A stretch of 64,000 bases of DNA from Coleofasciculus sp. B1-GNL1-01. Lineage in GTDB: Bacteria > Cyanobacteriota > Cyanobacteriia > Cyanobacteriales > Coleofasciculaceae. A model generated the notes under the pieces. That model saw nothing but the letters and a program-made list of their open reading frames with translations. It searched no databases and had not been told where the DNA came from. The position numbers and the translations under genes were made by a program. The DNA is taken from the NCBI GenBank assembly GCA_040220235.1, contig JAVJTO010000102.1. One strand, given 5' to 3'. Shown here piece after piece: positions 19,782 through 43,974 of the stretch. Within the stretch, counting starts at the first letter, position 1. Each line of letters opens with the position of its first letter.

Positions 19782-19985
19782 ATGTCATCTAAAGTTTTTA
19801 ATTTGCTGTCTGACCTTGCCCAAGATACAAATAAGCGGGACAGATTTAACGAAAATCCTGAGGTCGTACTAGACGAATACGGAATTGATCAAGATATGAA
19901 GACTTTGCTCACCAGTGGAAAGTGGGAAGATTTTCAACAAGCCGTTCATAAAGAGGCTGAAGCATACGGCATGAAAGCACCCTAG
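19782..19985 (+). CDS. Putative RiPP precursor with a LigA-like / borosin-binding-domain-like helical leader (67 aa)
   Basis: LLSDLAQD...RFNENPEVVLDEYGIDQDMKTLLTSG resembles LigA/SonA-type leaders; 41 bp upstream of a RiPP radical SAM gene. Confidence 0.7.
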   Translation: MSSKVFNLLSDLAQDTNKRDRFNENPEVVLDEYGIDQDMKTLLTSGKWEDFQQAVHKEAEAYGMKAP

Positions 19986-20026
19986 TGCAGGATGGTAAAA
20001 GTTAAGTAACCGATGCAAGAGAGCAG

Positions 20027-22078
20027 GTGAGCCAAGGAGCAATTACTATCATGATGGTTGATGATCGGGTGACTAAATCGGCGGTAAAACCGTCCTTGCA
20101 ACAACAGGCAGACGTGGTTCTAGTGAGTATGCCTTTTGGTCCCCTGCTTCCCTCTATCGGACTAGGTTTGCTCAAGGCTTCACTTGCGCCTGCAAACCTC
20201 TCGACGAAAGTGTGTTACTTCACCCTCCGCTTTGCTCAACAGATTGGCATTTCCCGCTATAACGAGACAACAAGTGGGGAAGTCTCGGTGTGTGATTTGG
20301 TGGGAGAATGGGTCTTTTCCGATGCCCTGTTTGACTCAAGGGTGCAGGATGTAGAAAACTTTATTGAAGATGTACTACGGGGACGTTCCCCAACTCATCG
20401 TGGGTCTTATCCAAATAGTAAACCGGTTTCTGAAACCTTTATCCAAAATGTTCTGTACATCCGCAGCTTAGTTGAGAACTTTCTGGATGAATGCGTAGCA
20501 GAAGTTTTGAGTTATCGTCCTCGCTTGGTTGGGTTTACCAGTACGTTTCACCAACACGTTGCAGCACTGGCGCTGGCTAAACGCCTGAAAGCAAAAGCGC
20601 CAGAGGTGTTTATCGAATTTGGCGGCGCGAATTGCCAAGGTGTGATGGGGATTGAAACAATCCGCCAATTTTCCTTTGTAGATGCCATTATATCGGGTGA
20701 AGGCGATCGCGTGTTTCCAGAATTGGTTCACCGAGTTTTCCAGAACCAGCCTGTTTCTGATTTGCCAGGGGTTTATACTCGAAACCGGATTGATGCGATC
20801 GGCAATTATTGGAATTTGAATGCGCCGACTGTTCATCAGATGGATGCGCTACCCATCCCAGATTACGATGACTACTTCCAAGAGTGGGAGAAAATTCGTC
20901 CTCACTTAAGTGAACCTTATCAGCCACGACTCCTAATAGAAACCTCACGAGGATGCTGGTGGGGAGAAAAAAAGCACTGTACGTTTTGTGGACTCAACGG
21001 TACGGAGATGACCTACCGCAGCAAGTCAGGGACTCGTGCTTTGGAGGAACTGCTCTATTTGATTGATAAATATCCAGGTTATCCCATTTCTGTGGTCGAT
21101 AATATCCTGGATATGAAGTATTTCAAAGACTTGATTCCAGAGATGGCAGCACGCCAGCTTGATTTGGAACTGTTTTATGAAGTGAAAGCCAATCTCAGAA
21201 AAGAGCAAGTGCGACTGCTCAAAGATGCCGGAATTACGATGATTCAGCCCGGGATCGAGAGTTTTAGCACTCACGTTCTCGAACTCATGCAAAAAGGTGT
21301 TCGCGGTTTACAAAATATCCAGTTGCTCAAATGGTGTAAAGAGTTAGGTGTTACCCCGTTCTGGAATCTGTTGTGGGGCTTTCCAGGTGAAACACCAGAG
21401 GACTACAGCCAGATGGCAAATCTGATTCCGTTACTGACTCATCTGCGACCTCCTAAATGGGCAGGGGCAATCCGGATTGACCGCTTCAGCCCTCATTTTG
21501 ATCGTCCGGAAGAGTTTGGCTTTGAGGAGGTTGTGCCGTTTCCCGCCTATCATTATATCTATCCATTCGCTCCTGAAGCGGTTGCTAATCTTGCTTATTT
21601 CTTCACCTTTAAGTATTGTCAGCAGCAAGATGTGGAACGTTATACCCGTCGGGTGAGAGAAGAAATCATCGCTTGGCAGTCTGCCTATGAAACCAGTACC
21701 CTGTTTGCTGTAGACCAAGGGACAAGCCTACAAATTTGGGATTTGCGACCGATTGCCCATCAATTGTTAGTCACACTGACAGAACCCTTGAAGACGCTGT
21801 ACCTGGCTTGTGACGGTATCCGCACCGTTAACTTCCTGCACCAGTTGCTTGCAAACCGCTTCAGTTATGCTATATCAGTGCAAGACGTAGCAGAAATGCT
21901 TCAACCCTTGGTTGATCGGGGATTACTGCTCAACGAAGGCAATTCCTATCTCAGTTTAGCGGTGTCAGTGGGTGAGTATTCACCCGACAAATCGGTGTTG
22001 AAGCGGTTGGTATCACAGGTAACACAGCGAGGACATCAGGTGTCACGAGTCAATGATTACTGCGAAATCACAAATTGA
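20027..22078 (+). CDS. B12-dependent RiPP-maturation radical SAM C-methyltransferase (TIGR03975/PoyB-PoyC-like)
   Basis: LVSMPFG..PSIGLGLLKA, B12-binding VGFTSTFHQ/FGGANC, CX7CX2C motif GCWWGEKKHCTFCGLNG, QPGIES, RIDRFSP. Confidence 0.9.
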   Translation: MSQGAITIMMVDDRVTKSAVKPSLQQQADVVLVSMPFGPLLPSIGLGLLKASLAPANLSTKVCYFTLRFAQQIGISRYNETTSGEVSVCDLVGEWVFSDALFDSRVQDVENFIEDVLRGRSPTHRGSYPNSKPVSETFIQNVLYIRSLVENFLDECVAEVLSYRPRLVGFTSTFHQHVAALALAKRLKAKAPEVFIEFGGANCQGVMGIETIRQFSFVDAIISGEGDRVFPELVHRVFQNQPVSDLPGVYTRNRIDAIGNYWNLNAPTVHQMDALPIPDYDDYFQEWEKIRPHLSEPYQPRLLIETSRGCWWGEKKHCTFCGLNGTEMTYRSKSGTRALEELLYLIDKYPGYPISVVDNILDMKYFKDLIPEMAARQLDLELFYEVKANLRKEQVRLLKDAGITMIQPGIESFSTHVLELMQKGVRGLQNIQLLKWCKELGVTPFWNLLWGFPGETPEDYSQMANLIPLLTHLRPPKWAGAIRIDRFSPHFDRPEEFGFEEVVPFPAYHYIYPFAPEAVANLAYFFTFKYCQQQDVERYTRRVREEIIAWQSAYETSTLFAVDQGTSLQIWDLRPIAHQLLVTLTEPLKTLYLACDGIRTVNFLHQLLANRFSYAISVQDVAEMLQPLVDRGLLLNEGNSYLSLAVSVGEYSPDKSVLKRLVSQVTQRGHQVSRVNDYCEITN

Positions 22079-22196
22079 TCAGTTGTTCCACCTTTAGTTT
22101 CCAGGTACTTACCCCGTTCGATGCCATCTTCATCGCTTAGTTAGAGAGGGACGTAGAATGGTAATGATTTGAGCTAAATAATGTGAGATATGATAG

Positions 22197-25100
22197 ATGC
22201 TCAAATCAACCGGATATGATATGACCTGTGAATCGAGCTTACATTTCTGGACATGGTTTAACCACAGACGCATCCGAACAACTGATTGGCGAGTTAATTC
22301 TAAAATTATTTCAGGAATTAAAATACTATTTTTAGTAGTCCTGATGAGCCTGAGTTTAGCCACTAATGCCTTGGCTCAACCGTCTAATATTCAGTTTGAT
22401 CGACTGACTATTGAGGATGGACTATCTGCCAGTACAGTCTTTTCTATTTTACAAGACCGTCAAGGATTTATGTGGTTTGCTACTCCCGATGGTTTGAACC
22501 AGTATGATGGTTATCAATTTAAGCTTTATAAACACAATTCTCTTGATCACTCTTCACTATCTGACAATTTCGTCACGACAATTTATAAAGATCATTTAGA
22601 AACTCTTTGGATCGGAACTAAGAATGGAGGACTCAATAAATTTAACAAAGTAGACGAAACATTTACTCATTACCAGTATGATCCCAATCATCCCAATAGC
22701 TTAAGCCAAAATCATATTTTATCAATTTATGAAGACCAATCGGGTATACTCTGGATTGGCACGGAAGGGGGCGGACTTAACAAATTTGATAGGGAAACAG
22801 AGCAGTTTATTCACTACAGCCATGACCCAGCTAATCCTCATAGTTTGAGTAACAATACGGTGACTTCACTCTATGCAGATAAACAGGGGACGCTTTGGGT
22901 AGGAACCAATGGTGGTGGCTTAAATCAATTTGATAGAGAAAGCCAGCAATTTAAGCATTATCAAAATGAACCAGGTAATCCTTCAAGTTTAAGTGATAAT
23001 CATATTTTATCAATTTATGAAGACCAATCAGGTACAATCTGGATTGGCACGGAAGGGGGTGGACTCAATAAATTTGACGAGGAAATGGGACAATTTATTC
23101 ACTATAGATACGAGCCAACTAACCCTGATAGTCTTAGTAGTAATACAGTGGGTCAAATTTATGAAGACCAATCAGGAGTGATGTGGATTGGAACGGGTAG
23201 CTGGTTGGGAACGTCGGGTGGGAAAGGAGTTAATACATTCGATCGAGAAACTGAAACATTTACGAGTTATACCAACAATCCAGCAAAATCCACAAGCTTC
23301 AGTGATAATACTTGCTTGTCTATTTATGAAGATAATTCTGGAATTATTTGGTTTGGCACTTTTAGTGGAGGAGTCAACAAAGTTGATCGGAAAAAGCGCA
23401 AATTTATCCACTATACTCACGAACCCGGTAACTCCAATAGTTTGAGTGAGAATACATCGGTAATGTCCATTTATGAAGATTCATCTGGCACAGTATGGAT
23501 AGGTACATTTGGTGGAGTCCTTGAGAAATTAGATCGTCAAACTGGAGAATTTACACACTATAAACATGAACCCGATACTCCAACCAGTTTAAGTGACAAT
23601 GCTGTCTGGTCTATTTACGAAGATAAGGGAGGAACACTTTGGGTCGGTACGTTTGGTGGTGGACTCAACAAATTTAACCGTGCAACCCAGGCATTTATCC
23701 ATTATTACCATGACGTTGATAATCCTACAAGTTTAAGCAACGATGCAGTGATGTCCATCTATGAAGATAGACAAGGAAATTTTTGGATTGGCACATTTGG
23801 GGGTGGATTAAATAAATTTGACCGTGAAACTGGGCAATTTACCGCTTATCGAAATCAACCGGATAATCCCCAAAGTTTGAGTGATAACAACATTTGGCAA
23901 CTTTACGAAGATAAAGAGGGTCGATTTTGGATTGCTACCCATAACGGTGGACTCAATAAATTTGACCGCAAAACTCAGCAATTTACCCGTTACCAATATA
24001 GCCAAGACCCGAATAGTTTGAGTAATAACAGTGTCTTGTCCATTTATGAAGATCAGTCGGGAATTCTTTGGTTGGGTACATTTGGTGGTGGACTTAATAA
24101 GTTCGACCCCGACACCGAGTCATTTTCTCATTACTCTGAAAAAGATGGTCTTGCCAATGATGTGGTTTATGGCATCCTTGGCGATGATGACGGCAATCTT
24201 TGGTTAAGTACGAATAAGGGGTTGTCCAAGTTTAATCCAAAAACGGAAACCTTTAAAAATTATGATGTTAGGGATGGACTTCAGAGTAATGAGTTTAATG
24301 CGGGAGCTTATTATCGTAGTCAAACCGGGGAAATGTTTTTTGGCGGCGTAAATGGCTTCAATGTATTTTACCCAGACCAAGTAAAAGATAATCCCTATAT
24401 TCCTTCCATTGTGATTACAGAGTTTAAAAAACTCAACCAAGATATTAAGTTAGATAAAAATATATCACAGATTCAAGAACTGAAACTATCTTATAAAGAT
24501 TATGTGTTTTCCTTGGAGTTCGCCGCCTTAAACTATACAATACCCGAGAAAAATCAGTACGCCTACAAACTAGAAGGTTTTGATCAAGACTGGATTCAGG
24601 CTGGAACAAGACGTTATGCCACTTATACTAACCTCGATGGTGGAACCTATACGTTTCGGGTGAAAGGGTCAAATAATGATGGAGTGTGGAACGAACAAGG
24701 GACATCGATTCAGATTATTATTTCGCCACCTCCCTGGGAAACGGGATGGGCTTACACCTTGTATGTTTTGGCGTTGGTGAGTACAGTTTTTGGCTATGTG
24801 CAGTGGAGAATCAGGGCGCAGAAACGAGAAACGGCACTGCTGCGAGAAAATGAAAGAAAACTGAATCAAATTTTGGAAGCCATTCCCGTGGGAATTGGTG
24901 TGATTGACGCCATAGGAAAATGGGTTTATGTGAATAAAACTGGGTTAAAATTACATGGGTTAGATGCTCCAAAAGACGGGTTCATTGAGAATTTATCCCA
25001 AGCTTATCAGGTTTATATTGCGGGGACAGATCAGTTATATCCGACAGAAAATTTGCCCTTAGTTCGGGCGTTGCGGGGAGAAAAAACCATCATTGATGAT

Positions 25101-27278
25101 GTAGAAGTTCATCAACCGGATCGGGTTGTTCCCTTAGAAGCTTGGGGGACACCCATTTATGATAATCAGGGGAACATTATTTATGCGATCACGGCGTTTC
25201 AAGATATCACCCAACGCAAACAAGCCGAACGCGATCGCCTTCAGTTTACCCAAGCCCTGGAAGCCAAAAACGCCGCCCTGCAACGCCTCGACCAACTTAA
25301 GGACGAATTTCTCGCCAATACCTCCCATGAACTCCGCACGCCTCTGAATGGGATTATTGGTATTGCTGAATCCTTAATCGATGGTGCAGCCGGGGCGCTG
25401 TCTGAGGTGCAAATCGCGAACTTGGCGATGATTGTCTCTAGTGGGAAGCGCCTCTCCAGTTTGGTTAATGATCTTCTGGATTTCTCTAAACTGAAAAACC
25501 AAGATATCGAACTGCAACGCCAACCCGTGGATTTTCAGCAAATTACTGACGTGGTTCTGACTCTTTGTCAACCTTTAGTTACGGGTAAATCCTTACATCT
25601 ACGAAACCAGGTTCCGGCTAATTTACCTGCTGTTGATGGGGATGAAAATCGCTTGCAACAGATTATGTATAACTTAGTCGGGAATGCAATTAAGTTTACT
25701 GAATCCGGGTCAGTTACCGTATCCGCCCAGGTGAAGAATAACCAGATTGAAGTCACCGTTGCGGATACAGGAATTGGGATTCCAGAGGATAAATTTGAGG
25801 ATATTTTCAAATCCTTTGAACAGGTTGATACCTCCCCCTCCCGATCTTATAGTGGCACGGGTTTAGGATTGAGTATTACTAAACAATTAGTCGAACTCCA
25901 TGGCGGTACTATCCGAGTTGAGTCTGAACGGGGACAGGGGTCTCAATTTGTCTTTACTCTACCCATGAGTAGCAAGTCTCCAGAACCTTCCTTGAGTATT
26001 AGCCAATTTATCAGCAAAGTACGACCCAATCCGATCCAACTTCCGACACCATCACCGGAAGAAACAACGATCGCGTCTAATCAAAAATTAATCATTTTAG
26101 TCGTTGATGATGAACCGATTAATCTGCAAGTCGTGACTAATCACCTTTCGGTACAAAACTATCGGATTATTCGCGCCATCAATGGGATGGAAGCCTTAGA
26201 TCAGATTCAAAAGGGGTTAAGACCCGATTTAATTCTCCTGGATTTGATGATGCCCAAAATGTCAGGGTATCAGGTTTGCCGCATGATTCGCCAGCAGTTT
26301 TCAGCGTCAGAAATGCCGATTGTGATGTTAACGGCGAAAAATCAGGTGTCTGATTTGGTGGCTGGTTTAGAGGTGGGGGCGAATGATTATGTGACTAAAC
26401 CTGTGCTGAAAAATGAATTGCTGGCACGGATTAAAACTCATCTTCGGTTATCGAAAATCAATAGTGCCTATAGTCGGTTTGTTCCCCATGAATTCCTCCG
26501 CTTTCTGGGACGTGAAAGTATTATTGATGTCCAGTTAGGGGATCAGGTGCAGCAGGAGATGTCGGTTTTGTTTGCGGATATTCGTAACTTTACCACGTTG
26601 TCGGAGCAAATGTCTCCCAAGCAAAACTTTAATTTTATTAATGCGTATTTAAAACGAGTGGGTCCGGTGATTCGCCAGCATCAAGGTTTTATTGATAAAT
26701 ATATTGGCGATGCCGTGATGGCATTGTTTCCTCATACCCCTGATGACGCTTTGCAAGCTGCGATTGAGATGCAACAGGAGGTGACACAGTATAATCGCGA
26801 TCGCCAAAATGCTGGATATCTGCCAGTAACTATTGGTATTGGCTTAAATACGGGAAGTTTGATGTTAGGAACGATTGGGGAAAAACAACGGATGGAAAGT
26901 ACAGTAATTTCTGATACGGTGAACCTAGCCTCCCGGCTGGAAGACTTAACTAAAGTCTATGGGGCGGCGATTTTGGTGAGTGGACATACATTATTTGACT
27001 TGGATGATCCTAACCAGTATGAGTATCGATTTATAGGTCAAGTTCAAGTTAAAGGCAAAAAGGATTTAGTGCCTATCTTTGAGGTGTTTGAGACTGATCC
27101 GATTGATAGCCGCAGGTTAAAGCAGCAAACGAAGCAAAAGTTTGAACAAGGGGTTATCTTGTATCACCAGAGACAATTCTCATTAGCGTCTCAACGCTTT
27201 ACAGAAATCAGCCAAATCAACCCACAGGATCAAGCGGCTCATTTCTATATCCAGCGCTGTCAAGGGTTACAAGAGTAG
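22197..27278 (+). CDS. Hybrid sensor: extracytoplasmic Reg_prop beta-propellers + Y_Y_Y, TM, PAS, HisKA/HATPase, REC, class III adenylate cyclase
   Basis: Signal-like FLVVLMSLSLATNALA; many SIYEDxxGxLWIGTxGGGLNKFD repeats; [62 protein letters not shown]. True start uncertain. Confidence 0.92.
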   Translation: MLKSTGYDMTCESSLHFWTWFNHRRIRTTDWRVNSKIISGIKILFLVVLMSLSLATNALAQPSNIQFDRLTIEDGLSASTVFSILQDRQGFMWFATPDGLNQYDGYQFKLYKHNSLDHSSLSDNFVTTIYKDHLETLWIGTKNGGLNKFNKVDETFTHYQYDPNHPNSLSQNHILSIYEDQSGILWIGTEGGGLNKFDRETEQFIHYSHDPANPHSLSNNTVTSLYADKQGTLWVGTNGGGLNQFDRESQQFKHYQNEPGNPSSLSDNHILSIYEDQSGTIWIGTEGGGLNKFDEEMGQFIHYRYEPTNPDSLSSNTVGQIYEDQSGVMWIGTGSWLGTSGGKGVNTFDRETETFTSYTNNPAKSTSFSDNTCLSIYEDNSGIIWFGTFSGGVNKVDRKKRKFIHYTHEPGNSNSLSENTSVMSIYEDSSGTVWIGTFGGVLEKLDRQTGEFTHYKHEPDTPTSLSDNAVWSIYEDKGGTLWVGTFGGGLNKFNRATQAFIHYYHDVDNPTSLSNDAVMSIYEDRQGNFWIGTFGGGLNKFDRETGQFTAYRNQPDNPQSLSDNNIWQLYEDKEGRFWIATHNGGLNKFDRKTQQFTRYQYSQDPNSLSNNSVLSIYEDQSGILWLGTFGGGLNKFDPDTESFSHYSEKDGLANDVVYGILGDDDGNLWLSTNKGLSKFNPKTETFKNYDVRDGLQSNEFNAGAYYRSQTGEMFFGGVNGFNVFYPDQVKDNPYIPSIVITEFKKLNQDIKLDKNISQIQELKLSYKDYVFSLEFAALNYTIPEKNQYAYKLEGFDQDWIQAGTRRYATYTNLDGGTYTFRVKGSNNDGVWNEQGTSIQIIISPPPWETGWAYTLYVLALVSTVFGYVQWRIRAQKRETALLRENERKLNQILEAIPVGIGVIDAIGKWVYVNKTGLKLHGLDAPKDGFIENLSQAYQVYIAGTDQLYPTENLPLVRALRGEKTIIDDVEVHQPDRVVPLEAWGTPIYDNQGNIIYAITAFQDITQRKQAERDRLQFTQALEAKNAALQRLDQLKDEFLANTSHELRTPLNGIIGIAESLIDGAAGALSEVQIANLAMIVSSGKRLSSLVNDLLDFSKLKNQDIELQRQPVDFQQITDVVLTLCQPLVTGKSLHLRNQVPANLPAVDGDENRLQQIMYNLVGNAIKFTESGSVTVSAQVKNNQIEVTVADTGIGIPEDKFEDIFKSFEQVDTSPSRSYSGTGLGLSITKQLVELHGGTIRVESERGQGSQFVFTLPMSSKSPEPSLSISQFISKVRPNPIQLPTPSPEETTIASNQKLIILVVDDEPINLQVVTNHLSVQNYRIIRAINGMEALDQIQKGLRPDLILLDLMMPKMSGYQVCRMIRQQFSASEMPIVMLTAKNQVSDLVAGLEVGANDYVTKPVLKNELLARIKTHLRLSKINSAYSRFVPHEFLRFLGRESIIDVQLGDQVQQEMSVLFADIRNFTTLSEQMSPKQNFNFINAYLKRVGPVIRQHQGFIDKYIGDAVMALFPHTPDDALQAAIEMQQEVTQYNRDRQNAGYLPVTIGIGLNTGSLMLGTIGEKQRMESTVISDTVNLASRLEDLTKVYGAAILVSGHTLFDLDDPNQYEYRFIGQVQVKGKKDLVPIFEVFETDPIDSRRLKQQTKQKFEQGVILYHQRQFSLASQRFTEISQINPQDQAAHFYIQRCQGLQE

Positions 27279-27293
27279 GGGCTTGGGAACCAA

Positions 27294-27426
27294 CATTGGT
27301 ATTAACTTACAGAGGATGCTTCGCTTTTGTTGCACGGGAGAAGGGGGATCGGATGCTCTTGCTCCCCTCTCCCCGGCGTGGGAGAGGGGCTGGGGGTGAG
27401 GGGTTGAGCTTAAGTTGACACGGATG
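27294..27426. repeat. Composite dispersed repeat/MITE with a CTTAAGTTGACAC end
   Basis: Reverse-complement similarity to 38932..39090 (GTGTCAACTTAAGCTCAACCCCTCACCCCCAGCCCCTCTCCC; AAGCGAAGCATCC). Confidence 0.7.
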
Positions 27427-27493
27427 GTTCCCAAACCCCTATATTTTTATTAGGGGTGATGGGTTCGCACTCCTATCTTCTTTTGGCGATCGT

Positions 27494-28639: not shown

Positions 28640-28955
28640 GTTCTCCTTGGGTAAAGGTGACATCGTTAATCAGGGCTACTATGCCAACCTCTCTCATCCC
28701 AAATTTATATAATGGCTAGATTGACAAAATGACGTAAATATGGTTAGAGCCAAGCTAGGGGAGAAGAGCGCGATACGTCCTATCAGACACGCTGGCGCGA
28801 TCGCACTCCGTCAGGCGGTGAACTCTGGTTGTGGTGAGAGTGGGGGAAAAACAAGAGTGTCAGAGGCGATCGCTAAATAGAATCCTGACAATCTCTATGA
28901 TCAATTGTGGCTAGTTTTGGGTTTATACTCAAATCATTAAGAGCCGCCTTTATCT

Positions 28956-31253: not shown

Positions 31254-31434
31254 TCCCATAGATTGGTTATAACCCATCCTGAAAAATGATCCACTTGGTT
31301 TATTAAGAATGATGTACAACCATTGAATTTTCCGCCAGTGGAGTTAATAATATTCGTTAAAAAATAAATATAGTGCATTTAATCACGTTTACGATTTGCG
31401 GAATCCACGACAATACAATTGGAGAGTCTAACTG

Positions 31435-32086: not shown

Positions 32087-32116
32087 GAATCCCCCGCCCA
32101 AAGGATGGGGGATTTC
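32087..32116 (+). terminator. Possible stem-loop/terminator after the 186-aa gene
   Basis: AATCCCCC...GGGGGATT inverted repeat. Confidence 0.35.
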
Positions 32117-32193
32117 GCATTATCAGCATCCCATTTTAGAGGGGGGATTCCAAAACCGTAACTGTATCGCCGCCAAGCCAAGACTTAAAAATT

Positions 32194-33285: not shown

Positions 33286-33405
33286 CTATTTTAGTTATTC
33301 ACTCAATTATGGCTAAAAGAGAAAAAAGCACGACCATGTATTTGGCAATATAGAAAACCCTAAAATAACAGTCCAACTGAATAACACTTACTTCTGTTAA
33401 AAAAA

Positions 33406-36400
33406 ATGAACTTCACGACTGACTATCAAATTCTTGCCAAAATATACGAAAGCAATAATTCATTAGTCTATCGAGCGATTCTTCCCAAAAATCATCAACC
33501 CATTATTCTTAAGATTCTTAAAGAAGACTATCCCACTCCAGCAGAACTCAATCGATACAAGCAAGAATATGAAATAACCCGTTCCTTAAATCTGGAAGGT
33601 GTGGTTAAAGCATACAACTTACAGCGATATCAAAATAGCTTGATCATGCTATTGGAAGATTTTGGGGGAGAATCTTTAAGGAAATGGATGACCGAGTGCC
33701 AGTTTAATCTGAAAGAATGTCTCGATATTGCTCTAAAAATAACCGAAGGCTTGGGCGGAATTCATGCTGCCAATATCATCCACAAAGATATTAATCCATC
33801 AAATATTGTTTATAACCCAAAAACTGGACAATTAAAAATCATTGATTTTGGAATGTCTTCTGTTTTATCGCGGGAGAATCCAGCCGTTCGTAATCCGGAT
33901 CATCTGGAAGGCACGTTAGCCTATATTTCCCCAGAGCAAACAGGCAGAATGAATCGAGTGATTGATTATCGAACTGATTTCTATTCTCTGGGGGTTACAT
34001 TCTACGAACTTCTCACCTATCAACTTCCATTTAAAACGACTGATGCGATGGAGTTGGTGCATTGTCATATCGCTAAACAACCGATTCCACCTCATCGCTT
34101 GAGAGGAGGAGCAAATGAACTCAAGAATAGGGGGATCAACGAGATTCCTAAGACGGTTTCTGATATCGTCATGAAACTGATGGCAAAAACGGCAGAGGAT
34201 CGCTATCAAAGTACTTGGGGACTAAAAGCCGATTTAGAAAGCTGTTTAAGTCAATTACAAACTCAAGGTGAGATTTTAGAGTTCACTCTCGGTCAGCAAG
34301 ATATTTCAGATCAGTTTAAAATCCCGCAAAAACTCTATGGTAGGGAAACAGAAATCAAGAAACTGATAGCAACCTTTAATCAAGTGAGCCAAGGCACAAG
34401 TCAAATGATGCTTGTGGCGGGCTATTCAGGTGTTGGAAAGTCAGCATTAGTGAATGAAATTCATAAACCTATCGTGCGACAGCATGGGTATTTTATTTCC
34501 GGTAAATTTGATCAGTTTAAGCGGAATATTCCCTATGCTTCTATAATTCAGGCTTTCCAAGAATTGATGCGGCACTTGTTGACAGAAAGTGAAGCGCGTC
34601 TGCAAGCTTGGAGGCAAGAACTGCTAGCCGCACTGGGAAGCAATGGGAAGGTGATTACTGATGTTATTCCTGAAGTCGAAATAATTATTGGTAAACAGCC
34701 ACCCGTGCCGCAACTCGGTTCAACTGAGTCCCAAAATAGATTTAATTTAGTCTTTAAAAATTTTATTGGTGTTTTCACTAAAAAAGAACATCCTTTAGTT
34801 ATTTTTATGGACGATTTACAGTGGGCAGATTCTGCTTCTTTAAAGTTAATTCAGTTGTTAATGACTGAACCCGATATCCAATATTTACTCATAATTGGGG
34901 CATATCGAGATAATGAAGTCAGCGCCACACATCCTTTGATGTTCACCTTAGAGGAAATTGAGACTCATAATATAAATGTGAATACTATTACTCTTAAGCC
35001 TTTAACAATAGACTGTGTTAAGCAATTAATTTCTGATACGTTACACTCTTCGCAAGATGCAGCTAAACCTTTAGCTAATTTACTTTTAAATAAGACTAAT
35101 GGCAACCCGTTTTTTTTGACTCAATTACTTGAAAATTTATATCAAAGAAATATATTTTTATTCGATTCAAATACGGGATCATGGCAGTGGAATATTAATC
35201 AGATTCAAACTGTAGAAATAACTGATAATGTTGTTGAACTAATGGTCAGTAAAATTAAACGATTAGATGAGCCAACCCAAACTGTATTAAAATTGGCAGC
35301 CTGTATGGGCAACCGATTTAATTTAGATGTTCTCTCCGTCGTCAACTCCAAATCGTTGTCAAATACGGCTAACGATCTGTGGTCAGCCATACAAGAAGGG
35401 TTAATTATTCCGTTAAGTGATGATTACAAAATACCCCTGCTTTGGCAGAAAGAAAGCGAGTTAATTGACTCTGGAAAACCAGCCCACTCTCTCTTTTCGG
35501 CTCAGAAACATTCTATCTTTTATAAATTTTTGCATGACCGAGTTCAACAAGCGGCTTATGCTCTGATTCCCGATAACCATAAAAAAGAAGTTCATGTCAA
35601 AATTGGTCAATTATTGCTAGCGAACGTCAAAGAAAATGAACTCGATGAAAATATTTTTGCCATTGTTAACCAGTTAAATATTGGAGCCGAATTAATTAAC
35701 GAGCAGTCAGATAGAGATGAGTTGGCTCAATTAAATCTGATGGCTGGGAAGAAAGCCAGAGAAGCAACAGCTTATGAATCGGCTGTTAGGTACTTAACGA
35801 TAGGGTTAGATATCCTCTCATCAGATGCCTGGGAACGTCAGTATGACTTAACCCTGGAACTGCATATAGAAACGATTAAATCCCAATACCTCTGTACCCA
35901 ATTTGAGCAAGCACACAAGCTTTCTGCGGTTGTTCTAAAACATACTAAAACGCTGATTGATCAAGCTAAAGTGTATGAAATAAAGCTTCAATCCTACTAC
36001 TCGCAACTACAGTTCCAGTCAGCGATAGATACGGGACTTGAGATTTTAGCGAAATTGGGAATAGTTTTGCCCCAACAACCAAGCCAAAGGCGAATAAAAA
36101 AAGAACATAATGCATTCAAGTTACTTTTAGGCGATAAACGGATTAAAGACTTAGCTAATCTACCCGAAATGACGGCTGCTGATAAACTGGCAGCAATGAG
36201 AATCTTACTCGCGATCGCTTCACCTACTTATATTACTAATCCACCCTTGTTTGCGATGGTTGCTCATAGTTTAGTGACTCTCTGTATCAAGTATGGAAAT
36301 TCTAGTTTAGCTGTGGGGGGTTATATTAACTATGCTCTGTATCTATCTGGAATTGAAGGTTATAAAGAAGATGCTTATCATTTTGGTCAATTGTCTTTGC

Positions 36401-38880
36401 AGTTACTGGAAAAGTTTAATGCCCAACAATTTACAGCAAGAGTTCCCTTGATCTATAATACTCAGATTAAACATTGGAAAGAACATACTAAAACTACCAT
36501 AGAACCGTTACGAGAGGGATTAAATACCGGATTAGAACATGGGGATTTGGAGTATGCTGGCATGGCTGCAAATTCCTATTGCGCCAATCTATTCTTTATT
36601 GGCAAGAATTTGGATGACGTAGAACAACAGACCGCAAAGTATACTGAATTAATGCTCAAATTAAAGCTGGTATATTCTATACAATATTCCCAGGTTTTTC
36701 ATCAAACTGTATTGAATTTACTCAATCCCCCTATAGAGCAATTCAATTTAATTGGCAAAGCTTTTAATGAAACTCAATCTATTCCTAAATTAATAGAAGG
36801 AAAAAATTACTGTACATTGTGTCACTTGTATGCTAACAAAGCACTATTGTCTTTTTTATTCAAACATTATCAGCAGGTCATTGAACATATTAGATTAGGT
36901 CAATCCTACGCCAGTTCTGCTGCTGGAATGATAGCCCTCGTTCAGCTTAATTTTTATGAGTCAATAGGCAATTTAGGGTTATACTTTAAAGACCAGAGTT
37001 TAGAGAAAAAACAGTTAATTAATAAAACTAATATAAATCAAAAGCGTCTGAAAAAATGGGCAGCTCATTGCCCAGAAAATCATCAACATAAATATGAACT
37101 CGTGGAAGCGGAAAAAGCGCGGGTTTTGGGTCAACAAATCCCAGCCATGGAACATTATGATTCCGCGATTCGTGGGGCGAGAGAGCAAGGGTTCATCCAC
37201 GAAGAAGCCATCGCTTACGAACGGGCGGCGGAGTTTTATTTCTCCCTCGGTAGAGACGAAATCGGTAAATTCTACCTAAAAAACGCCCACCACTGCTACA
37301 CGCGCTGGGGTGCTAAAGCTAAAGTCAAAGCCTTGGAAGCAGAATATCCGCAAATTTTAGTTGGTGCAACCCATCGAACTGATAGTAAAGGGATTAGCAC
37401 CCGAATCTCTACATCGGGGCGTGATGCTCAAGCGTTAGATTTGTCAACGGTGATGAAAGCCTCGCAAACCCTCACCAGTGAAATTATGCTGGATAAGGTA
37501 CTGGCGAAACTGATGAATATTGCCATAGAGAATGCAGGCGCACAAAAAGGCTTTCTAATTTTACAATCCCAAATTGAGCCAGAGACTGAGCCAGGGAAAT
37601 GGGTAATTGAAGCCGAAGGTATCGTGGATTCAGAAGCGGTTAATATTTTGCGATCGCGTCCTGTAGATACGGTCGATCCTGACACCCAATTGCCCCTGCT
37701 GTCAACCGCTATCATCAACTACGTCATCCACACCAAGGAAAATATTGTCCTCAATGACGCCACCCATGAAGGACAATTTACCCGCGATTCCTATATCGTC
37801 GCCACTCACCCCAAATCCATCCTCTGCACCCCCCTCCTCAATCAAGGCAAACTAACAGGTATTCTTTACTTAGAAAATAACCTCGCCACCGACGCCTTTA
37901 CACCCGAACGAGTCGAAACCTTAAAAATTCTATCCGCCCAAGCCGCTATCTCCATCGAAAATTCCCGCCTTTACCAACAACTCGAAGCCTACAGCCGTAA
38001 CCTGGAAATTAAAGTTGATGAAAGAACCCAGGAACTCCAAGACAAAAATCAGGAACTCTCCGCCACCCTGAAAAAACTCAAAGCCACCCAAGATAAAATT
38101 ATCGCCCAAGAGAAACTCGCCTCCCTCGGTGCATTAACCGCCGGGATTGCCCATGAAATTAAAAATCCCTTAAACTTTGTCAATAACTTCGCCGAACTGT
38201 CGGCTGAGTTAACCGAAGAACTCTTAGAAGAACTCGACAGTCAAAAAGAACGATTAGACCCGGAAAGCACCGAATACATCGAAGAAATTCTCAGTGACTT
38301 AGAACAAAACGTAAAAAAAATCAACGAACATGGCAAACGCGCCGACAATATTGTGCGCGGGATGTTGATGCATTCACGGGGTCAAGGGAACGAACGCCAA
38401 CTCATCGATATCAACGCACTTCTATCTGAATATGTAAATCTGGCATATCACGGAATGCGTGCTAAAGACTCCTCATTCAACATCACCATTGAAACCGACT
38501 ATGACCCCACCCTTGGTCAAATTAATATTGTGCCGCAAAATATCAGTCGCGTCTTTCTCAATGTGATCAATAATGCCTGTTATGCTGCCCATGACAAGAA
38601 AAAATCCGTTGACACAGACTTTACTCCCACACTCTCCGTTACCACCAAAAATCTAGGCGATAAAGTCGAAATCCGTATCCGAGATAACGGTAATGGCATC
38701 CCAGCAGACATTCGAGATAAAATATTCAACCCCTTCTTTACCACCAAACCCACAGGTCAAGGAACAGGGTTGGGATTATCCATTAGTCACGATATCATTG
38801 TGGGAGAACATCAAGGGGAGATTCAGGTAGCAACTGAAGTAGGCACATATACCGAGTTTAAGATTATTTTGCCGCAATAA
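33406..38880 (+). CDS. Trifunctional Ser/Thr kinase - AAA/STAND ATPase - TPR-like region - GAF - histidine kinase (HstK-like)
   Basis: [24 protein letters not shown]; Walker A GYSGVGKS and Walker [57 protein letters not shown]. Confidence 0.93.
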
Positions 38881-38911
38881 TAGTAGCCAGGGCGCGTCTT
38901 GAACAGTGTAG

Positions 38912-39210
38912 TGTAGGGGCGACCCGCTGTACATTAGTGTCAACTTAAGCTCAACCCCTCACCCCCAGCCCCTCTCCCAAGCTTGGGGGGGAGCAAGAGG
39001 GGAGCAAGAGAATCCGGTTCCCCTTCTCCCGTGCCAAAAAAAGCGAAGCATCCGCTGGCTTCCCCGTGCCAAAAAAGCGAAGCATCCTTTGGCTTCCCCC
39101 TTTTGAAGGGGGACGGGAGGGGGATCTGAAGGGGGACGGGAGGGGGATCTAATAGGGGGACGGGAGGGGGATTCAAAAGGGGGACGGGAGGGGGATTCAA
39201 AAGGGATGAG
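38912..39210. repeat. Composite repeat region: REP-like start, GTGTCAACTTAAG element and four G-rich about 23-25 bp tandem units
   Basis: GGGGGACGGGAGGGGGAT x4 at about 39108..39197. Confidence 0.8.
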
Positions 39211-39266
39211 GGGGAAAATGCTTAACAGTTTATGTCACTCTTGATAAATTGAGAGGAAAGGGAAAA

Positions 39267-39653
39267 ATGATAAAAGTCATGGTAGTCGATGATGAAAAAG
39301 ATGTTCTGTTGTTGTTTCGACAACGATTTAGAAAAGAGATTAGACAGGACAAAATTGAATTTCACTTTGCGTTCTCAGCCAAGGAAGCCCTCTACTATCT
39401 GGAAATGGAAAGCAAAAAAGAAAATTGTGTGGTCTTAATCCTGTCCGATATTAATATGCCGGAAATCAACGGCTTAGAATTACTTAAAACTATCAAAACC
39501 CAATTTCCCAGCTTAAAAGTTTTTATGATTACCGCTTACGGCGACGACGAAAACTATCGCCTGTCCCAAGAATACGGAGCTGATGATTATATTCATAAAC
39601 CCGTTGACTTTGACCAACTCAAAGAAAAAATCTTTAATTTATCCACAACCTAG
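39267..39653 (+). CDS. Single-domain response regulator (REC)
   Basis: VMVVDDE, LSDINMPEING, MITAYG, IHKP; ATG at 39267. Confidence 0.9.
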   Translation: MIKVMVVDDEKDVLLLFRQRFRKEIRQDKIEFHFAFSAKEALYYLEMESKKENCVVLILSDINMPEINGLELLKTIKTQFPSLKVFMITAYGDDENYRLSQEYGADDYIHKPVDFDQLKEKIFNLSTT

Positions 39654-39667
39654 CCGACTGAAAACCA

Positions 39668-40852
39668 ATGCCAGCCAAAATACTGGTTGTCGATGATGAA
39701 CCCGACATAGAACCCCTAATCCGTCAAAAATTCAGAAAAAAGATTCGGCGCAAAGAATTCCAGTTTAGCTTTGCCTGTAATGGTGTGGACGCCCTAGAAA
39801 AGATACAAGCTGACTCTGATATTGATATGGTTTTAACCGATATTAATATGCCCCAAATGGACGGGTTAGCCTTGCTGATGAAACTGGCAGCAGACTATCC
39901 AGCGATTAAAACCGTGATCCTGTCCGCTTATGGGGATATGAACAATATTCGAGCGGCGATGAACTTAGGCGCGTTTGATTTTCTCACCAAACCCATTGAT
40001 TTTCAAGACTTAGAAATTACCACCTACAAAACCCTCAACCATGTCCAGCAAATCAAACAAGCCTTAGCCCAAAAAAACTATCTCAAGCGCTTAGAAGCCG
40101 AAAACCTCCGCCTCAACACCGAACTCGATATTACCCGACGACTGCAACAGATGCTGTTACCCACAGAAACAGAACTACATCAAATTCAGGGACTCGATAT
40201 CGCTGGGTATATGCAACCCGCCAATGAAGTCGGGGGAGACTATTACGACGTACTGCAACACAATGGCAGGGTGAAAATTGGCATCGGCGATATCACGGGT
40301 CACGGATTAGCCAGTGGTGTCCTGATGCTGATGGTACAAACGGCGGTGCGGACATTGCTGGTCAATAATGAGACCAACACCGTTAACTTTTTCAGTACCC
40401 TCAACCAAACGATTTACCACAACCTACAACGGATGCGCTGCGACAAGAACTTAAGCCTGGTCTTAATCGACTATCATCAGGGAACTCTAACTGTGAGTGG
40501 ACAACATGAGCAAATGATTGTGCTACGCTCTGAAGGTAGGATTGAGCGAATTGATACGATTGATTTAGGCTTCCCCATTGGTTTGGCAGAGGCTATTGCC
40601 GACTTTGTGGCGGAAGCGACCGTACAGTTGTATCCCGGTGATGGAGTTGTCCTCTATACCGACGGGATTACAGAAGCCGAAGATATTAATGGGGTGCAAT
40701 ATGGGCTAGAACGGCTGTGTCAAGTCTTAAGTAACAACTGGCACAAGTCAGCCTGTGAGATTAAACAGGCAGTTATTGACCAAGTGTGGCAGCATATTGG
40801 AAACCAGAAAGTTCATGATGATATCACCTTACTTATTCTTAAGCAGCAGTGA
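39668..40852 (+). CDS. REC - SpoIIE/PP2C (RsbU-like) phosphatase
   Basis: ILVVDDE..TDINMP; EVGGDYYD, GDITGHG, LYTDGITEA, HDDITL. Confidence 0.92.
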   Translation: MPAKILVVDDEPDIEPLIRQKFRKKIRRKEFQFSFACNGVDALEKIQADSDIDMVLTDINMPQMDGLALLMKLAADYPAIKTVILSAYGDMNNIRAAMNLGAFDFLTKPIDFQDLEITTYKTLNHVQQIKQALAQKNYLKRLEAENLRLNTELDITRRLQQMLLPTETELHQIQGLDIAGYMQPANEVGGDYYDVLQHNGRVKIGIGDITGHGLASGVLMLMVQTAVRTLLVNNETNTVNFFSTLNQTIYHNLQRMRCDKNLSLVLIDYHQGTLTVSGQHEQMIVLRSEGRIERIDTIDLGFPIGLAEAIADFVAEATVQLYPGDGVVLYTDGITEAEDINGVQYGLERLCQVLSNNWHKSACEIKQAVIDQVWQHIGNQKVHDDITLLILKQQ

Positions 40853-40950: not shown

Positions 40951-41049
40951 GGGAATAGAGAATAGGGAATAGAGTCGAGGTGTTCCCTATCTCCCAGACG
41001 TTCCACGGTCACGTCTCTACAGTCAGCCCATCCTTATCAGGCAAAAACA

Positions 41050-43974
41050 ATGCCAGCAAAAATACTGGTTGTCGATGATGAACCTGATTTAGAAGTCCTA
41101 ATTCGCCAGAAGTTTAGAAAAAAAATTCGGCGTCAGGAACTCCTGTTTATTTTCGCCCGGAATGGTGTAGATGCTTTGGGAAAACTGCACGCCCAACCGC
41201 ATATTGATATGGTTTTAACCGATATTAATATGCCCGAAATGGATGGGTTAACCTTGCTGACACACCTCGCCCAAGATTATCCCACCACTAAAGCTGTGAT
41301 TCTTTCTGCCTATGGGGATATGGAAAATATCCGCAAAGCCATGAATCTGGGAGCGTTTGACTTCCTGACTAAACCTATCGATTTCCAAGATTTAGAGATT
41401 ACCACCCATAAAACCCTAAACCATGTGCAACAGCTCAAAGCCGCACAACAGCAGGAGAGTTTGGCACAACAAGCGCAAGCTGACTTATTAGAAAATCTAC
41501 GCCAAGAAGTGATTGAGCGCAAGCGCGTCCAAGAGGCATTACGGGCGAGTGAGAGACAGTTGGCACAATTTCTAGAAGCTGTACCCGTAGGCTTATTTGT
41601 CGTTGATGCTGAGGGTCAATCTCACTATGCAAACCAACGGGCGCAACAACTTGTCGGAAAAGAGATGATACCGGGTGCAACGGTTGAAGAATTGTCCCAA
41701 GTTTATCAAATCTACGTCGCCGGAACTAATCAACTCTACCCCACCGAGGAAAACCCCATCGTGCGAGCCTTATGGGGGGAACGAGTCACTGTGGATAATC
41801 TGGAAATTCATCGCGGGGATCAAGTGATTCCCTTGGAAGTCTGGGCAACTCCCATCTATAATGAACAGGGTGAAATTGTTTATGCGATCGCGGCTTTTCA
41901 AGATATCAGTCTCCACAAGCAAGCTGAAGCAGAACGGCTTCAGTTTACCCAAGCCTTAGAACAACAGAATGCGGCGTTGCAGCGCCTAGACCAACTCAAA
42001 GATGAGTTTTTAGCCAATACCTCCCACGAACTACGGACTCCCCTGAATGGCATTATTGGCATTACTGAATCCCTCATCGATGGGGCGGCGGGTTCCCTGT
42101 CTGAGATGCAAATCGCGAATCTGGCAATGGTTGTTTCCAGTGGGAAGCGCCTGAACAGCCTCATTAATGATATTTTGGATTTTGCCAAACTGAAAAACCA
42201 AGATATCAAATTACACCGCAAATCAGTGGACTTTCGCCAAATCACGGAAGTGGTGCTTACCCTATCTCGCCCCCTGATTAAGGGCAAATCTATCGACTTA
42301 AACAATGAAATACCCACAGATTTTCCTGGTATTGATGGCGACGAGAATCGGTTGCAACAAGTTATGTATAATCTGGTGGGCAATGCGATTAAGTTTACCG
42401 AATCAGGTTCTATTACCGTGTCAGCCACCCAGCAGCAAAATATGGCAGAAATAACGGTGGCAGATACGGGGATTGGTATTTCCCTGGATAAATTCGAGGA
42501 TATTTTTAAATCTTTTGAGCAACTTAACGCCTCGGTTTCCCATTCCTCTAGGGGGACAGGATTAGGATTAAGTATTACCAAACAACTGATTGAACTTCAC
42601 GGCGGTAGGATTCGCGTTGAGTCAGAAGTGGGTCAAGGTTCACGATTTATTTTCACGCTTCCTCTCAGTTTCCAACCGATTGCATCTTCATCAGACTATA
42701 GAACGGATATTACCAAAGTACGGGACTATAGTAACTCTTTTCCCAGTGAACTGTTGCCCCTGATGTCTAAAACGGGCGAGTTCACGATTTTAGTGGTAGA
42801 CGACGAACCGATTAATTTGCAGGTAGTGACGAATCACTTATCTGTACAAAATTATGCCATTGTTCAAGCCACCAGTGGGATAGAGGCTTTAGCCAAAATC
42901 GAGCAGGGATTTAAACCGGATCTGGTGATTCTAGATATTATGATGCCCAAAATGTCAGGCTACGAAGTCTGCCAAAAAATTCGCGAACGCTTTCCAGCCA
43001 CTGAAGTACCAATTATTATGTTGACGGCGAAGGAACAAGTCTCAGATTTAGTGGAAGGGTTGAGTGTGGGCGCGAATGATTATTTAACTAAACCGATTTC
43101 TAAACATGAATTGATTGCCCGGATCAAAACCCATCTTTATCTGGCGAAAATCAATAGTGCTTATGGGCGCTTTGTTCCCCAAGAATTTCTCCGCTTTTTG
43201 GGCTATGAAAGCATTGTGGATGTGCGCTTGGGAGATCAGGTGCAGCAGGATATGTCGATTATGTTTGCGGATATTCGCAATTTTACGACTCTATCAGAAA
43301 GTATGTCGCCCCAGGAGAATTTTAACTTTCTCAATTCTTATTTAAAACAAGTGGGACCAATTATCCGTAAGCATCAGGGGTTTATCGATAAATACATTGG
43401 CGACGCAATTATGGCACTGTTTCCCCAGACTGCCGATGATGGCTTAAAAGCGGCGATTGAAATCCAGAAACAGGTGACACGTTATAACCGCGATCGCGAA
43501 AAAGCAGGGTATCCTTCAATTACCATTGGCATTGGCTTACATACAGGCAGTTTAATGCTAGGAACCATTGGGGAACAGCAGCGCATGGAAACTACCGTAA
43601 TTTCTGATACGGTTAACCTAGCATCACGCTTAGAAGATTTGACAAAAATCTACGGGGCATCCATTTTAATTAGTGGTTACACTTTGTTTTGTTTAGAGGA
43701 TCAAAGTCAATATCACTATCGATTTATCGGTCAGGTGCAGGTTAAAGGTAAAAAAAACTTGGTTCCAGTCTTTGAATTTTTTGATGCGGAACCGGAGTAT
43801 ATCATCCAATTAAAAGAAAATACTAAAACCACATTTGAAGCAGGAATCGTTAATTTTAATCAAAATAAAATTGATGTAGCTTTGAGAATATTTGAACATA
43901 TTATAGCAATTAATTGGCGCGATAGAGCGGCGCTTAATTACATTAAACTTTGTAAAAGGACACGACCACAATAG
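41050..43974 (+). CDS. Cytoplasmic REC-PAS-HisKA/HATPase-REC-adenylate cyclase hybrid
   Basis: N-terminal [15 protein letters not shown]; second [34 protein letters not shown]. Confidence 0.93.

Follow-up and report, generated by a model that had tools for sequence, protein, structure and literature searches.

A four-gene cyanobacterial cassette joins predicted azoline-forming and oxygenase enzymes and a nameless putative precursor family to a modular sensor kinase

We analysed a 64,000-nucleotide stretch of contig JAVJTO010000102.1 of the cyanobacterium Coleofasciculus sp. B1-GNL1-01 (hereafter the window), in which the region from 19,782 to 43,974 had been proposed to be one island where two modules for peptides that are made by the ribosome and modified afterwards (RiPPs), here units 1 and 2, are wired to signalling relays. 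The 24 kb region is a composite. The conserved cassette in it, at 28,956-38,880, belongs to unit 2 and consists of four genes, encoding a YcaO cyclodehydratase, a 186-residue putative precursor resembling nitrile hydratase-like leader peptides (NHLP), an amidohydrolase-related oxygenase (ARO) and a giant kinase that combines a Ser/Thr kinase (STK) domain with STAND ATPase, TPR, GAF and histidine kinase (HK) parts. Our best reading, to which we would give a probability of about 0.5, is that the precursor stays inside the cell as an azole-capped protein and regulates the kinase. The cassette and the three genes behind it, all with receiver (REC) domains, are listed here by coordinates and strand.

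28956..31253, +: fused RRE/E1-YcaO cyclodehydratase (azoline synthase), unit 2; TIGR03882, TIGR03604
31435..31995, +: folded NHLP-like protein, 186 residues, tail PYPYIP-L-T-S-C; putative substrate of an unnamed family
32194..33285, +: BarH/LynB7-type amidohydrolase-related diiron oxygenase; predicted azoline-carboxylate oxidative decarboxylase
33406..38880, +: Ser/Thr kinase-STAND ATPase-TPR-GAF-histidine kinase of cbSTKIII/HstK type (Pfam)
39249..39653, +: single-domain receiver (Pfam)
39668..40852, +: REC-SpoIIE (PP2C) phosphatase (Pfam)
41050..43974, +: REC-PAS-HK-REC-class III cyclase (Pfam)

Linkage of the modification units to signalling genes is far above chance. Two sets of loci were used to assess it (G, C and L numbers below are our handles for genomes, contigs and loci). 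When 301 genomes of the order, from 121 genera, were searched with a precursor profile, 50 genomes and 38 genera were positive; 40 of these 50 genomes gave 43 precursor-anchored loci, nine others being already covered by the comparison with same-genus genomes or being the window's own genome, and one weak match was omitted. The second set comprises 79 named loci anchored on the oxygenase, drawn from the best 80 of 537 confirmed matches, and four of them duplicate loci of the first set. Of the 43 precursor-anchored loci, which represent 17 families, 41 have a kinase with STK and AAA domains no more than about 10 kb away, among them all 34 that are at least 18 kb long, the two misses being contigs of 4.7 and 10 kb; the kinase is downstream and on the same strand in 39 loci. 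YcaO is present in 36 of the 43, the 'amidohydrolase' in 37 and the full set of four genes in 33. The corresponding numbers for the 79 oxygenase-anchored loci are 65 with the kinase, 65 with YcaO, 71 with the precursor and 53 with all four. By chance, a 20-kb window would meet such a kinase in about 6% of cases (1-12% over 11 genomes), and signalling genes make up about 5.4% of the open reading frames (ORFs) of the genome (338/6209, a BLAST-based floor). As a control, 40 other YcaO loci were taken, and the 35 of them without an oxygenase have the kinase in two cases, with none among the 16 long ones. The order of the genes is shuffled between loci while the set of four persists. Two Parabeggiatoa records (L151, L170; Gammaproteobacteria) and three plasmids of cyanobacteria carry the cassette too. 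The synteny analysis called for in the original prediction therefore turned out in its favour, as each modification unit keeps a conserved link with a particular sensor: unit 2 with the STK-STAND kinase (41/43) and unit 1 with a propeller kinase (2/2 informative orthologues).

The 'amidohydrolase' had been taken for a hydrolase; its sequence places it instead among the diiron oxygenases of the BarH/LynB7 type, predicted to act as oxidative decarboxylases. Its Pfam family is Amidohydro_2 and its best PDB match is the diiron monooxygenase PtmU3 (E 2e-39). Amidohydrolase-related dinuclear oxygenases are defined by the motifs D-x-H and D-x-P-H-x-D (PMC13154177), and this PF04909 protein has D11-A-H13 and, as its C-terminal D-x-P-H-x-D/E motif, D323-Y-P-H-M-D328. 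The ligands D11, H13, H199, E255, D323, H326 and D328 all align with those of a protein named BarH, and both motifs are found in 117 of 123 copies from the loci. Identity amounts to 59% with this BarH protein, embedded at the end of a nonribosomal peptide synthetase (NRPS) locus (L185; name according to UniRef), and to 62% with that of L186, and in a FastTree phylogeny, the deep supports of which are low, this BarH-type pair groups with the cassette oxygenases, away from distant AROs. LynB7 converts thiazoline-4-carboxylate into thiazole with Fe and O2 and requires the free 4-carboxylate; its seven ligands are listed in the same work (PMC10127204). E0U9F9, at 59.4% identity to BarH, catalyses the same decarboxylation; members of its clade adjoin a 'thiazoline synthase' in about 69% of cases, no product being named in the accessible part of that paper (PMC13154177). 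E0U9F9 itself was not located, and the copy on a PCC 7822 plasmid is E0ULZ8. An oxygenase that converts a C-terminal thiazoline-4-carboxylate into thiazole would explain why both the SagB dehydrogenase and a follower protease are missing and, since the precursor of the window ends in Cys, the YcaO enzyme would make exactly the substrate that such an oxygenase needs. A follower-removing hydrolase like PurAH was also considered and dropped: PurAH is absent from the 36 PDB matches and is 14% identical to LynB7 (PMC10127204).

The fused YcaO protein scores above the cut-offs of TIGR03882 (190 bits) and TIGR03604 (271 bits), carries the motifs EAIER at 407 and ELVER at 531 and has a Pro-rich C-terminus, NPFPMWM. 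It thus provides the azoline-forming YcaO with an E1/RRE partner that is expected of a cluster for thiazole/oxazole-modified microcins (TOMMs) or linear azole-containing peptides. The other usual components of such clusters, SagB, a leader protease and an exporter, are not there: a Pfam and NCBIfam scan of the 11 ORFs of the region found no SagB, no C39 or S8 protease and no ABC exporter, in agreement with what had been noted. SagB was found in none of the 43 precursor-anchored and in 3 of the 79 oxygenase-anchored loci; the genome's own SagB adjoins another YcaO gene, on C22. As to export, the loci have no NHLP-type exporter (0/43 and 0/79; none in 122 locus records by a screen that caught true ones in two control loci, the two ABC genes found in the loci being MsbA-like), and the genome has one elsewhere, as described below.

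The 186-residue precursor has no Pfam or NCBIfam family match, and none of 70 homologues match TIGR03793 or TIGR03795. The grounds for its earlier label, 'NHLP-like', are motifs, some weaker relatives and a fold match that is itself weak, and no named family. The nameless family to which it belongs counts 237 representatives at 50% identity, with members of about 100 to 430 residues that share SQLIAxxW, PYPPRP and a C-terminal tail of consensus P-Y-I-P-x-[ST]-[CST]-[SCT]; the window's protein ends in PYPYIPLTSC, and the final four residues vary across the family. Tails end in Cys, Ser or Thr in 86 of 105 cases, and any GG within the last 40 residues is seen in only 10 of 105; the window's precursor has no Gly-Gly leader motif. 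Its AlphaFold2 model has a confidence (pLDDT) of 90.8, residues 171-180 included, and is folded to within a few residues of the end. The best VIA match of this model, nitrile hydratase alpha, is weak (Z 3.2, root mean square deviation 6.4, 112 aligned residues), Foldseek gave no match at E<=0.001 and a search of the ESM Atlas gave no usable one. Short relatives reached with the family profile match TIGR03793 below its cut-off (E 6e-12 and 2e-11), and a short relative in L170 attains 29 of the 41 bits for TIGR03795. Transmembrane (TM) segments are absent from the precursor, the oxygenase and the kinase, the scan having left YcaO out. Because the precursor is modelled as folded and lacks Gly-Gly, the loci hold no NHLP exporter and TM segments are absent, an uncleaved capped protein acting on the kinase in the cytoplasm appears most likely.

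The kinase has the Pfam architecture Pkinase-AAA_16-GAF-HK, with nSTAND matches in addition; its catalytic motifs are intact and its loop is of the KD type, so that it combines the STK domain, at least one GAF domain, the histidine kinase and the KD loop of cbSTKIII/HstK proteins. The match to TIGR03903 is partial (134.5 bits, under the cut-off of 705.75). Residues 521-1345 are modelled (pLDDT 88) as a helical solenoid that has the STAND-TPR protein 6MFV as best Foldseek match (E 4.5e-5, TM-score 0.28/0.34), and the order of a P-loop ATPase followed by a helical/WHD part and a TPR-like solenoid is that of STAND-TPR proteins. What follows the GAF domain differs among the 85 full-length kinases of the loci: AAA_35 in 39, HK in 17, PP2C in 11, PAS-AAA_35 in 9, HK-REC in 5, PAS-cyclase in 3 and HK-REC-PP2C in 1. 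The kinase is thus made of a sensor half and an exchangeable output half. Kinases with STK and AAA domains are numerous, 2-35 per genome, and most of them have no precursor nearby. The idea that the linked ones form one clade was dropped, as they fall into several clades and intermingle there with 14 comparison kinases; 10 of these, taken without upstream flanks, are only presumed to be unlinked. Prediction of a complex between precursor residues 30-186 and kinase TPR residues 690-1345 scored 0.00, which speaks neither for nor against an interaction. In the cassette copies of L192 and L198 (and L179), the frames of kinase and oxygenase are split into many pieces, through either decay or assembly error.

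In 3 of 6 same-genus genomes, comparison shows a block exchange that took in the precursor, the oxygenase and the sensor half of the kinase and stopped at the GAF domain. In G002 and G003, identity to the window is 56-58% for the precursor, 70% for the oxygenase and 57-75% over STK/AAA/TPR, against 96% for the YcaO domain and 92-98% for GAF-HK, and the flanks of the block are 91-98% identical; the two genomes may represent a single event. In G004 the block includes YcaO as well, with the same right boundary and GAF-HK again at 95-96%. This exchange implies that the modification genes travel with the sensor half of the kinase. Over 49 loci, STK/AAA/TPR distances track those of YcaO (rho 0.61-0.70) and of the oxygenase (0.57-0.65), and GAF distances do so less (0.44 and 0.37). 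A separate AAA patch at 34966-35500, 82% identical to G006, G007 and G008 with flanks at 90-98%, suggests a small recombination tract in this genome. Downstream, everything from YcaO through the last cyclase gene is common to the genus and G019: the REC-SpoIIE gene is retained in the same-genus loci and G019, and the REC-PAS-HK-REC-cyclase gene in these and in G526. A single-domain receiver gene comes after HK-type kinases in related loci too.

On this basis, we propose that unit 2 is a cytoplasmic protein-modification cassette serving the kinase behind it. As its family suggests, YcaO would cyclise Cys, Ser or Thr within the last three residues of the folded precursor, a terminal Cys giving thiazoline-4-carboxylate. 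The diiron oxygenase, for which close family members acting on small substrates in vitro provide the precedent, would then use O2 to decarboxylate the ring to a terminal thiazole, and neither SagB nor a protease nor follower removal would be needed. Judging from these close enzymes, we consider this terminal-azole chemistry likely. The uncleaved, capped protein would remain intracellular and set the activity of the STK-STAND-TPR half, most simply through binding that depends on the state of its C-terminus. That the modified product acts on the linked kinase, as linkage and block exchange suggest, has roughly even odds. By domain logic, the kinase would signal through GAF to its exchangeable output, here from HK to REC, REC-PP2C and the hybrid HK-cyclase. 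A more specific version, which we regard as rather doubtful, is an enzymatic sensor of O2 or iron: YcaO would ready the C-terminus as an azoline-carboxylate, the oxygenase would decarboxylate it only with O2 and Fe(II), and the STAND-TPR kinase would read whether the carboxylate is present; TPR domains can recognise free C-termini. The logic of such a C-terminal cap switch would be comparable to that of the HIF hydroxylases or cysteine oxidases.

Several observations weigh against the proposal. Among 104 distinct oxygenase loci with a precursor, only 36 have one that ends in Cys; 56 have Ser/Thr only and 12 end in neither, and the decarboxylation of oxazolines, which would be needed for the 56, is not reported in the parts of PMC10127204 and PMC13154177 that were accessible. 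The three SagB-positive loci mentioned above have the oxygenase as well, and L221 has the kinase and SagB without it; some loci with oxygenase and YcaO have no kinase (L139, L154, L184, L188, L189, L235). The linked kinases, as said, are not one clade, and related genomes are not independent samples. With YcaO and the oxygenase controlled for, precursor tail and TPR show no specific co-variation (partial rho 0.05-0.10, tail distances being near saturation), and G008, with a precursor at 52% and a kinase at 83-93%, shows that the precursor can change alone. Finally, elsewhere in the genome, on C123, there is an NHLP exporter whose TIGR03796 score exceeds the cut-off, and C39 proteases have nine matches.

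The last point is relevant to what we rank next after the capped cytoplasmic regulator, at clearly lower probability: an unlinked protease could cut off a small peptide with a terminal thiazole or oxazole, to be released, and the kinase would control its production or sense it after re-uptake, as in an autoinducer loop. Besides the exporter and C39 matches, such a reading could invoke that the products of BarH and LynB7 are small metabolites (PMC10127204), that the last four tail residues vary and that some loci have further tailoring or secreted genes, namely a radical S-adenosylmethionine (SAM)-SPASM enzyme (14 loci), a signal-peptide protein with CxxCH (14), a DyP peroxidase, an O-methyltransferase, a prolyl oligopeptidase (3) and, in L170, an S8 protease. 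It is disfavoured by the missing Gly-Gly leader motif, which few family members have, by the PYPYIP motif being modelled within the fold, by the absence of the NHLP exporter from all loci and of TM segments from the kinase, and by the outputs in the window, a phosphatase and cyclases with no DNA-binding regulator. Another possibility, which we find improbable, is that the precursor is a substrate and not a regulator, the Ser/Thr kinase domain phosphorylating its tail either as part of the biosynthesis or while competing with YcaO. The tail is Ser/Thr-rich, the kinase motifs are intact and of the KD type (PMC2176072), the partial correlation with the tail is greatest for STK distance, if still small (0.14), and a large Ser/Thr kinase also stands beside the NHLP-Burk precursors of Haft et al. 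(PMC2887384). But most of the 2-35 such kinases of a genome have no precursor nearby, and the fused and exchanged signalling outputs would be left unexplained.

Slightly less probable again is a guard-type defence or stress system, in which the STAND kinase would monitor the modified protein and fire when phage or stress alters or removes it. The STAND-TPR architecture, a patchy distribution (50/301 genomes of the order), the allele exchange and the plasmid copies would all suit a guard; PADLOC, however, matches the generic kinase domain only, with no match for the YcaO, precursor, oxygenase, radical SAM or AAA_35 parts, the outputs are ordinary phosphorelay, PP2C and cyclase domains and not cell-death effectors, and the locus is stable across the genus. 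Very unlikely, in our view, is the integrated pathway of the original prediction, with the radical SAM and YcaO units cooperating over the whole 24 kb. It could point to L170 (Parabeggiatoa), where a TIGR03975 radical SAM gene lies inside an oxygenase-YcaO-kinase cluster, and to the near-identical HK-REC-cyclase modules (67%) in which both units end. Yet unit 1 is missing from all eight same-genus genomes searched and sits in a 9.2-kb insertion with an Rpn gene, G442 and G454 carry unit 1 without unit 2 nearby, and such a radical SAM gene occurs in only 1 of the 79 oxygenase loci, at 33% identity.

The cassette is a variant of the kinase-linked TOMM type of Burkholderia (NHLP-Burk), which has TIGR03795 precursors, a TIGR03882 fused cyclodehydratase and a TIGR03903 kinase/cyclase (Haft, Basu, Mitchell 2010, PMC2887384). 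Common to both are the fused cyclodehydratase, an NHLP-like precursor that ends in Cys (or Cys-Cys) and has no Gly-Gly site, the absence of an exporter and an adjacent large Ser/Thr kinase with a related AAA region (PMC2887384). The precursor of a gammaproteobacterial NHLP-Burk example, L293, ends in GPTYLFTCC, by eye resembling PYPYIPLTSC; comparison of the profiles of the window-precursor family and the L293 precursors was not significant (probability 1-2%). NHLP-Burk precursors, unlike the single gene here, belong to TIGR03795 and come as tandem pairs (PMC2887384); their kinase has the order STK-cyclase-AAA-TPR, against STK-AAA-TPR-GAF-output in the window, where TIGR03903 is not reached; and the oxygenase was not found in the two TIGR03903 genomes searched. 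With BarH, LynB7, DolJ and E0U9F9, the oxygenase of the window shares the seven metal ligands and both motifs, at 59% identity to BarH (E0U9F9, 59.4%), but BarH-type enzymes end NRPS pathways (PMC10127204, PMC13154177) and this one sits with a YcaO. Like the cbSTKIII/HstK kinases of filamentous cyanobacteria, the kinase has an N-terminal KD-type Ser/Thr kinase, GAF and a C-terminal His kinase; those proteins respond to nitrogen source or iron, and neither a ligand nor a linked modification cassette is given in the accessible part of that report (PMC2176072). Many linked members, unlike HstK, carry AAA_35, PP2C or a cyclase instead of HK.

Bottromycin is made by a pathway with a YcaO enzyme, the amidohydrolase PurAH and B12-dependent radical SAM enzymes. 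It thus has enzyme classes in common with the window, and a C-terminal thiazole; its decarboxylation is carried out by a P450 (PMC10127204). The link between the oxygenase and YcaO has been published already, as that with a 'thiazoline synthase' (PMC13154177). For this clade, the main text of the paper mentions no RiPP or YcaO and its supplement text no precursor or kinase; the gene neighbourhoods drawn in Figure S15 may show a kinase or precursor. The literature searched, which leaves most subscription papers outside, yielded no account of the cassette of four genes, nor of its precursor family, its link to the kinase or the exchange of outputs and blocks.

Our results name a putative substrate family for a large clade of diiron decarboxylases that was described in 2026 without a product. 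The four genes also make testable the role of the kinase beside NHLP-Burk-type clusters, noted in 2010 (PMC2887384), as well as what STAND kinases of the HstK type sense, and the point at which outputs are swapped in nature, the GAF boundary, marks the divide between the sensor and output halves. There is a hint that antibiotic-type chemistry is used for signalling inside the cell in many cyanobacteria. Should the kinase indeed be controlled by a capped protein, azole chemistry would serve to modify a folded protein for regulation and not to make a secreted toxin. If the O2/iron-sensor version holds, HstK-type kinases would gain a first ligand class and, together with the propeller-linked units, ribosomal peptide chemistry would be a recurring input layer of cyanobacterial signalling.

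The remainder of the region is an insertion, with these features:

19701..28940, no strand: strain-specific insertion (unit 1, propeller kinase and Rpn gene), from same-genus comparison
19782..19985, +: small protein of the LigA/NHLP clan, 67 residues, C-terminus EAEAYGMKAP; putative radical SAM substrate, unit 1
20027..22078, +: B12-dependent radical SAM enzyme, TIGR03975 RiPP C-methyltransferase type, unit 1
22197..27278, +: Reg_prop/Y_Y_Y propeller-PAS-HK-REC-class III cyclase, sensor of unit 1 (Pfam)
27494..28663, -: Rpn-family nuclease/putative transposase in the insertion, above the TIGR01784 cut-off

All 11 genes predicted for the region were confirmed at their coordinates, with the Rpn gene alone on the minus strand, and Pfam and NCBIfam bear out the enzymes of both RiPP-type units and the signalling domains. 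The single wired island did not survive, the two units having separate histories. In G002, G003, G006 and G008 (4/4 same-genus genomes compared), an upstream histidine kinase gene is followed by 346-486 bp and then by YcaO: similarity to the window breaks off near 19,700 and sets in again at 28,940-28,950. This short gap in all four identifies window positions 19,701-28,940 as a 9.2-kb insertion. In this strain, unit 1 was inserted upstream as a further cassette, independent of unit 2. Its radical SAM enzyme scores 673.7 bits for TIGR03975 (cut-off 281.85), has a B12-binding domain and a CxxxCxxC motif within residues 310-321, is absent from the eight same-genus genomes (0/8) and has homologues in 12 of the 301 genomes of the order (E<=1e-60), four of them at 70-72% identity. 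The Rpn gene has seven BLAST matches in the genome.

The label 'LigA-like' given to the 67-residue protein is supported by a Pfam LigA match that is weak (E 0.006); TIGR04351 and TIGR04509 stay under their cut-offs, and its Atlas neighbours, LigA-like and of the Os1348 NHLP clan (score 0.88), are a lead only. A homologue search returned the protein itself alone. Orthologues, reached through the radical SAM neighbourhood, are 58-59% identical, end in YGLKAP and stand 5' of the same radical SAM gene in G442, G454 and G502. The order in G442 and G454 is small protein (59%, YGLKAP end), radical SAM and propeller-HK-REC-PP2C; at a contig end of G502 lie the first two of these, and in G512 the radical SAM gene lies within a CHAT/TPS/CHASE2-cyclase locus with a different small protein. 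The propeller kinase thus adjoins unit 1 in both informative close orthologues, which belong to another family, and in them (L255, L256) PP2C replaces the cyclase: unit 1 also keeps its sensor while swapping its output, in a small sample from one genus. The window's propeller kinase has the domains Reg_prop x13-Y_Y_Y-PAS-HK-REC-cyclase, with its C-terminal half 67% identical to the REC-PAS-HK-REC-cyclase behind unit 2. Hydrophobic segments, signal-like near residue 37 and TM-like near 852, predict an extracytoplasmic sensor domain, and the intracellular ligand that had been suggested, here a putatively methylated protein, does not simply fit this propeller, which is predicted to face outwards. 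The genome has only two such propellers, both after a RiPP-type unit; the second comes after a YcaO-SagB-NHLP unit on C22, and 10 of 15 such control loci are arranged alike. The small LigA-like domain is presumably akin to the borosin-binding domain of split borosins. Those systems have a borosin alpha-N-methyltransferase, none being among the 11 ORFs of the region, where the enzyme is a B12 radical SAM, and like the window they often have RiPP genes near second-messenger genes, with GGDEF in 56% of clusters (bioRxiv 2021.12.24.474128).

A scan for promoters and terminators over the region stayed at chance level (38 vs 34.6 and 15 vs 17.0). A related allele of unit 2 occurs in three runs of RNA libraries and in a fourth, unlabelled one, unit 1 being outside their coverage; the contigs come from libraries with records of up to 109 kb, so that DNA may be present and no conclusion on expression or co-transcription is drawn.

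Some related loci are of interest in their own right. A variant cassette (L125, L126, L132, L135, L136, L142, L146, L156, L183, L201) has tandem NHLP-like genes of 105-120 residues and a divergent DyP peroxidase; its tails, YG[IL][LM]R[VI][CS] or YGIMR[HQ][TS], recall by their YG the YGMKAP of the 67-residue protein. The Okeania records L130, L133 and L138 have arrays of as many as seven precursor genes, packed together with two oxygenases and two kinases into about 20 kb. A signal-peptide protein of 470-580 residues with a C-terminal CxxCH and no Pfam match stands beside the precursor in 14 loci (e.g. L078, L073, L074, L080, L082, L290). YcaO and the oxygenase are joined by a Rieske ring-hydroxylase in L189 and L190, where the part read gave no call for a kinase or a precursor. 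The YcaO genes of a sister clade come with SagB (L242, G000:C22 29356-37932; L205, L208, L210, L212, L214, L217-L220), a short NHLP whose variable tail is acidic and contains Cys and, in 10 of 15 loci, a propeller sensor kinase directly 3'; these loci look like peptide-receptor pairs. TIGR03975-type radical SAM genes are further found inside CHAT-TPR/TPS/ShlB/CHASE2-cyclase loci (L257 of G512, L202, L203, L268, L269), some of which also have a heme-oxygenase-like protein and a small protein of 85-93 residues.

Elsewhere in the window, a polysaccharide cluster of low GC content (33-40%) at 1938-14774, with a flippase, three methyltransferases, glycosyltransferases and an O-antigen ligase, varies in gene content among same-genus genomes and is followed by a Phd/YefM-ParE toxin-antitoxin pair (14894-15540). 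Two further STAND-like loci are a pair made of an ATPase and a 2017-residue TPR-ATPase-WD40 protein (45569-53046) and a NACHT-helical-pentapeptide protein (59029-62166). Related short intergenic repeats at 27300-27450 and 38930-39200 have a very high depth in contigs and are therefore probably members of a genome-wide repeat family.

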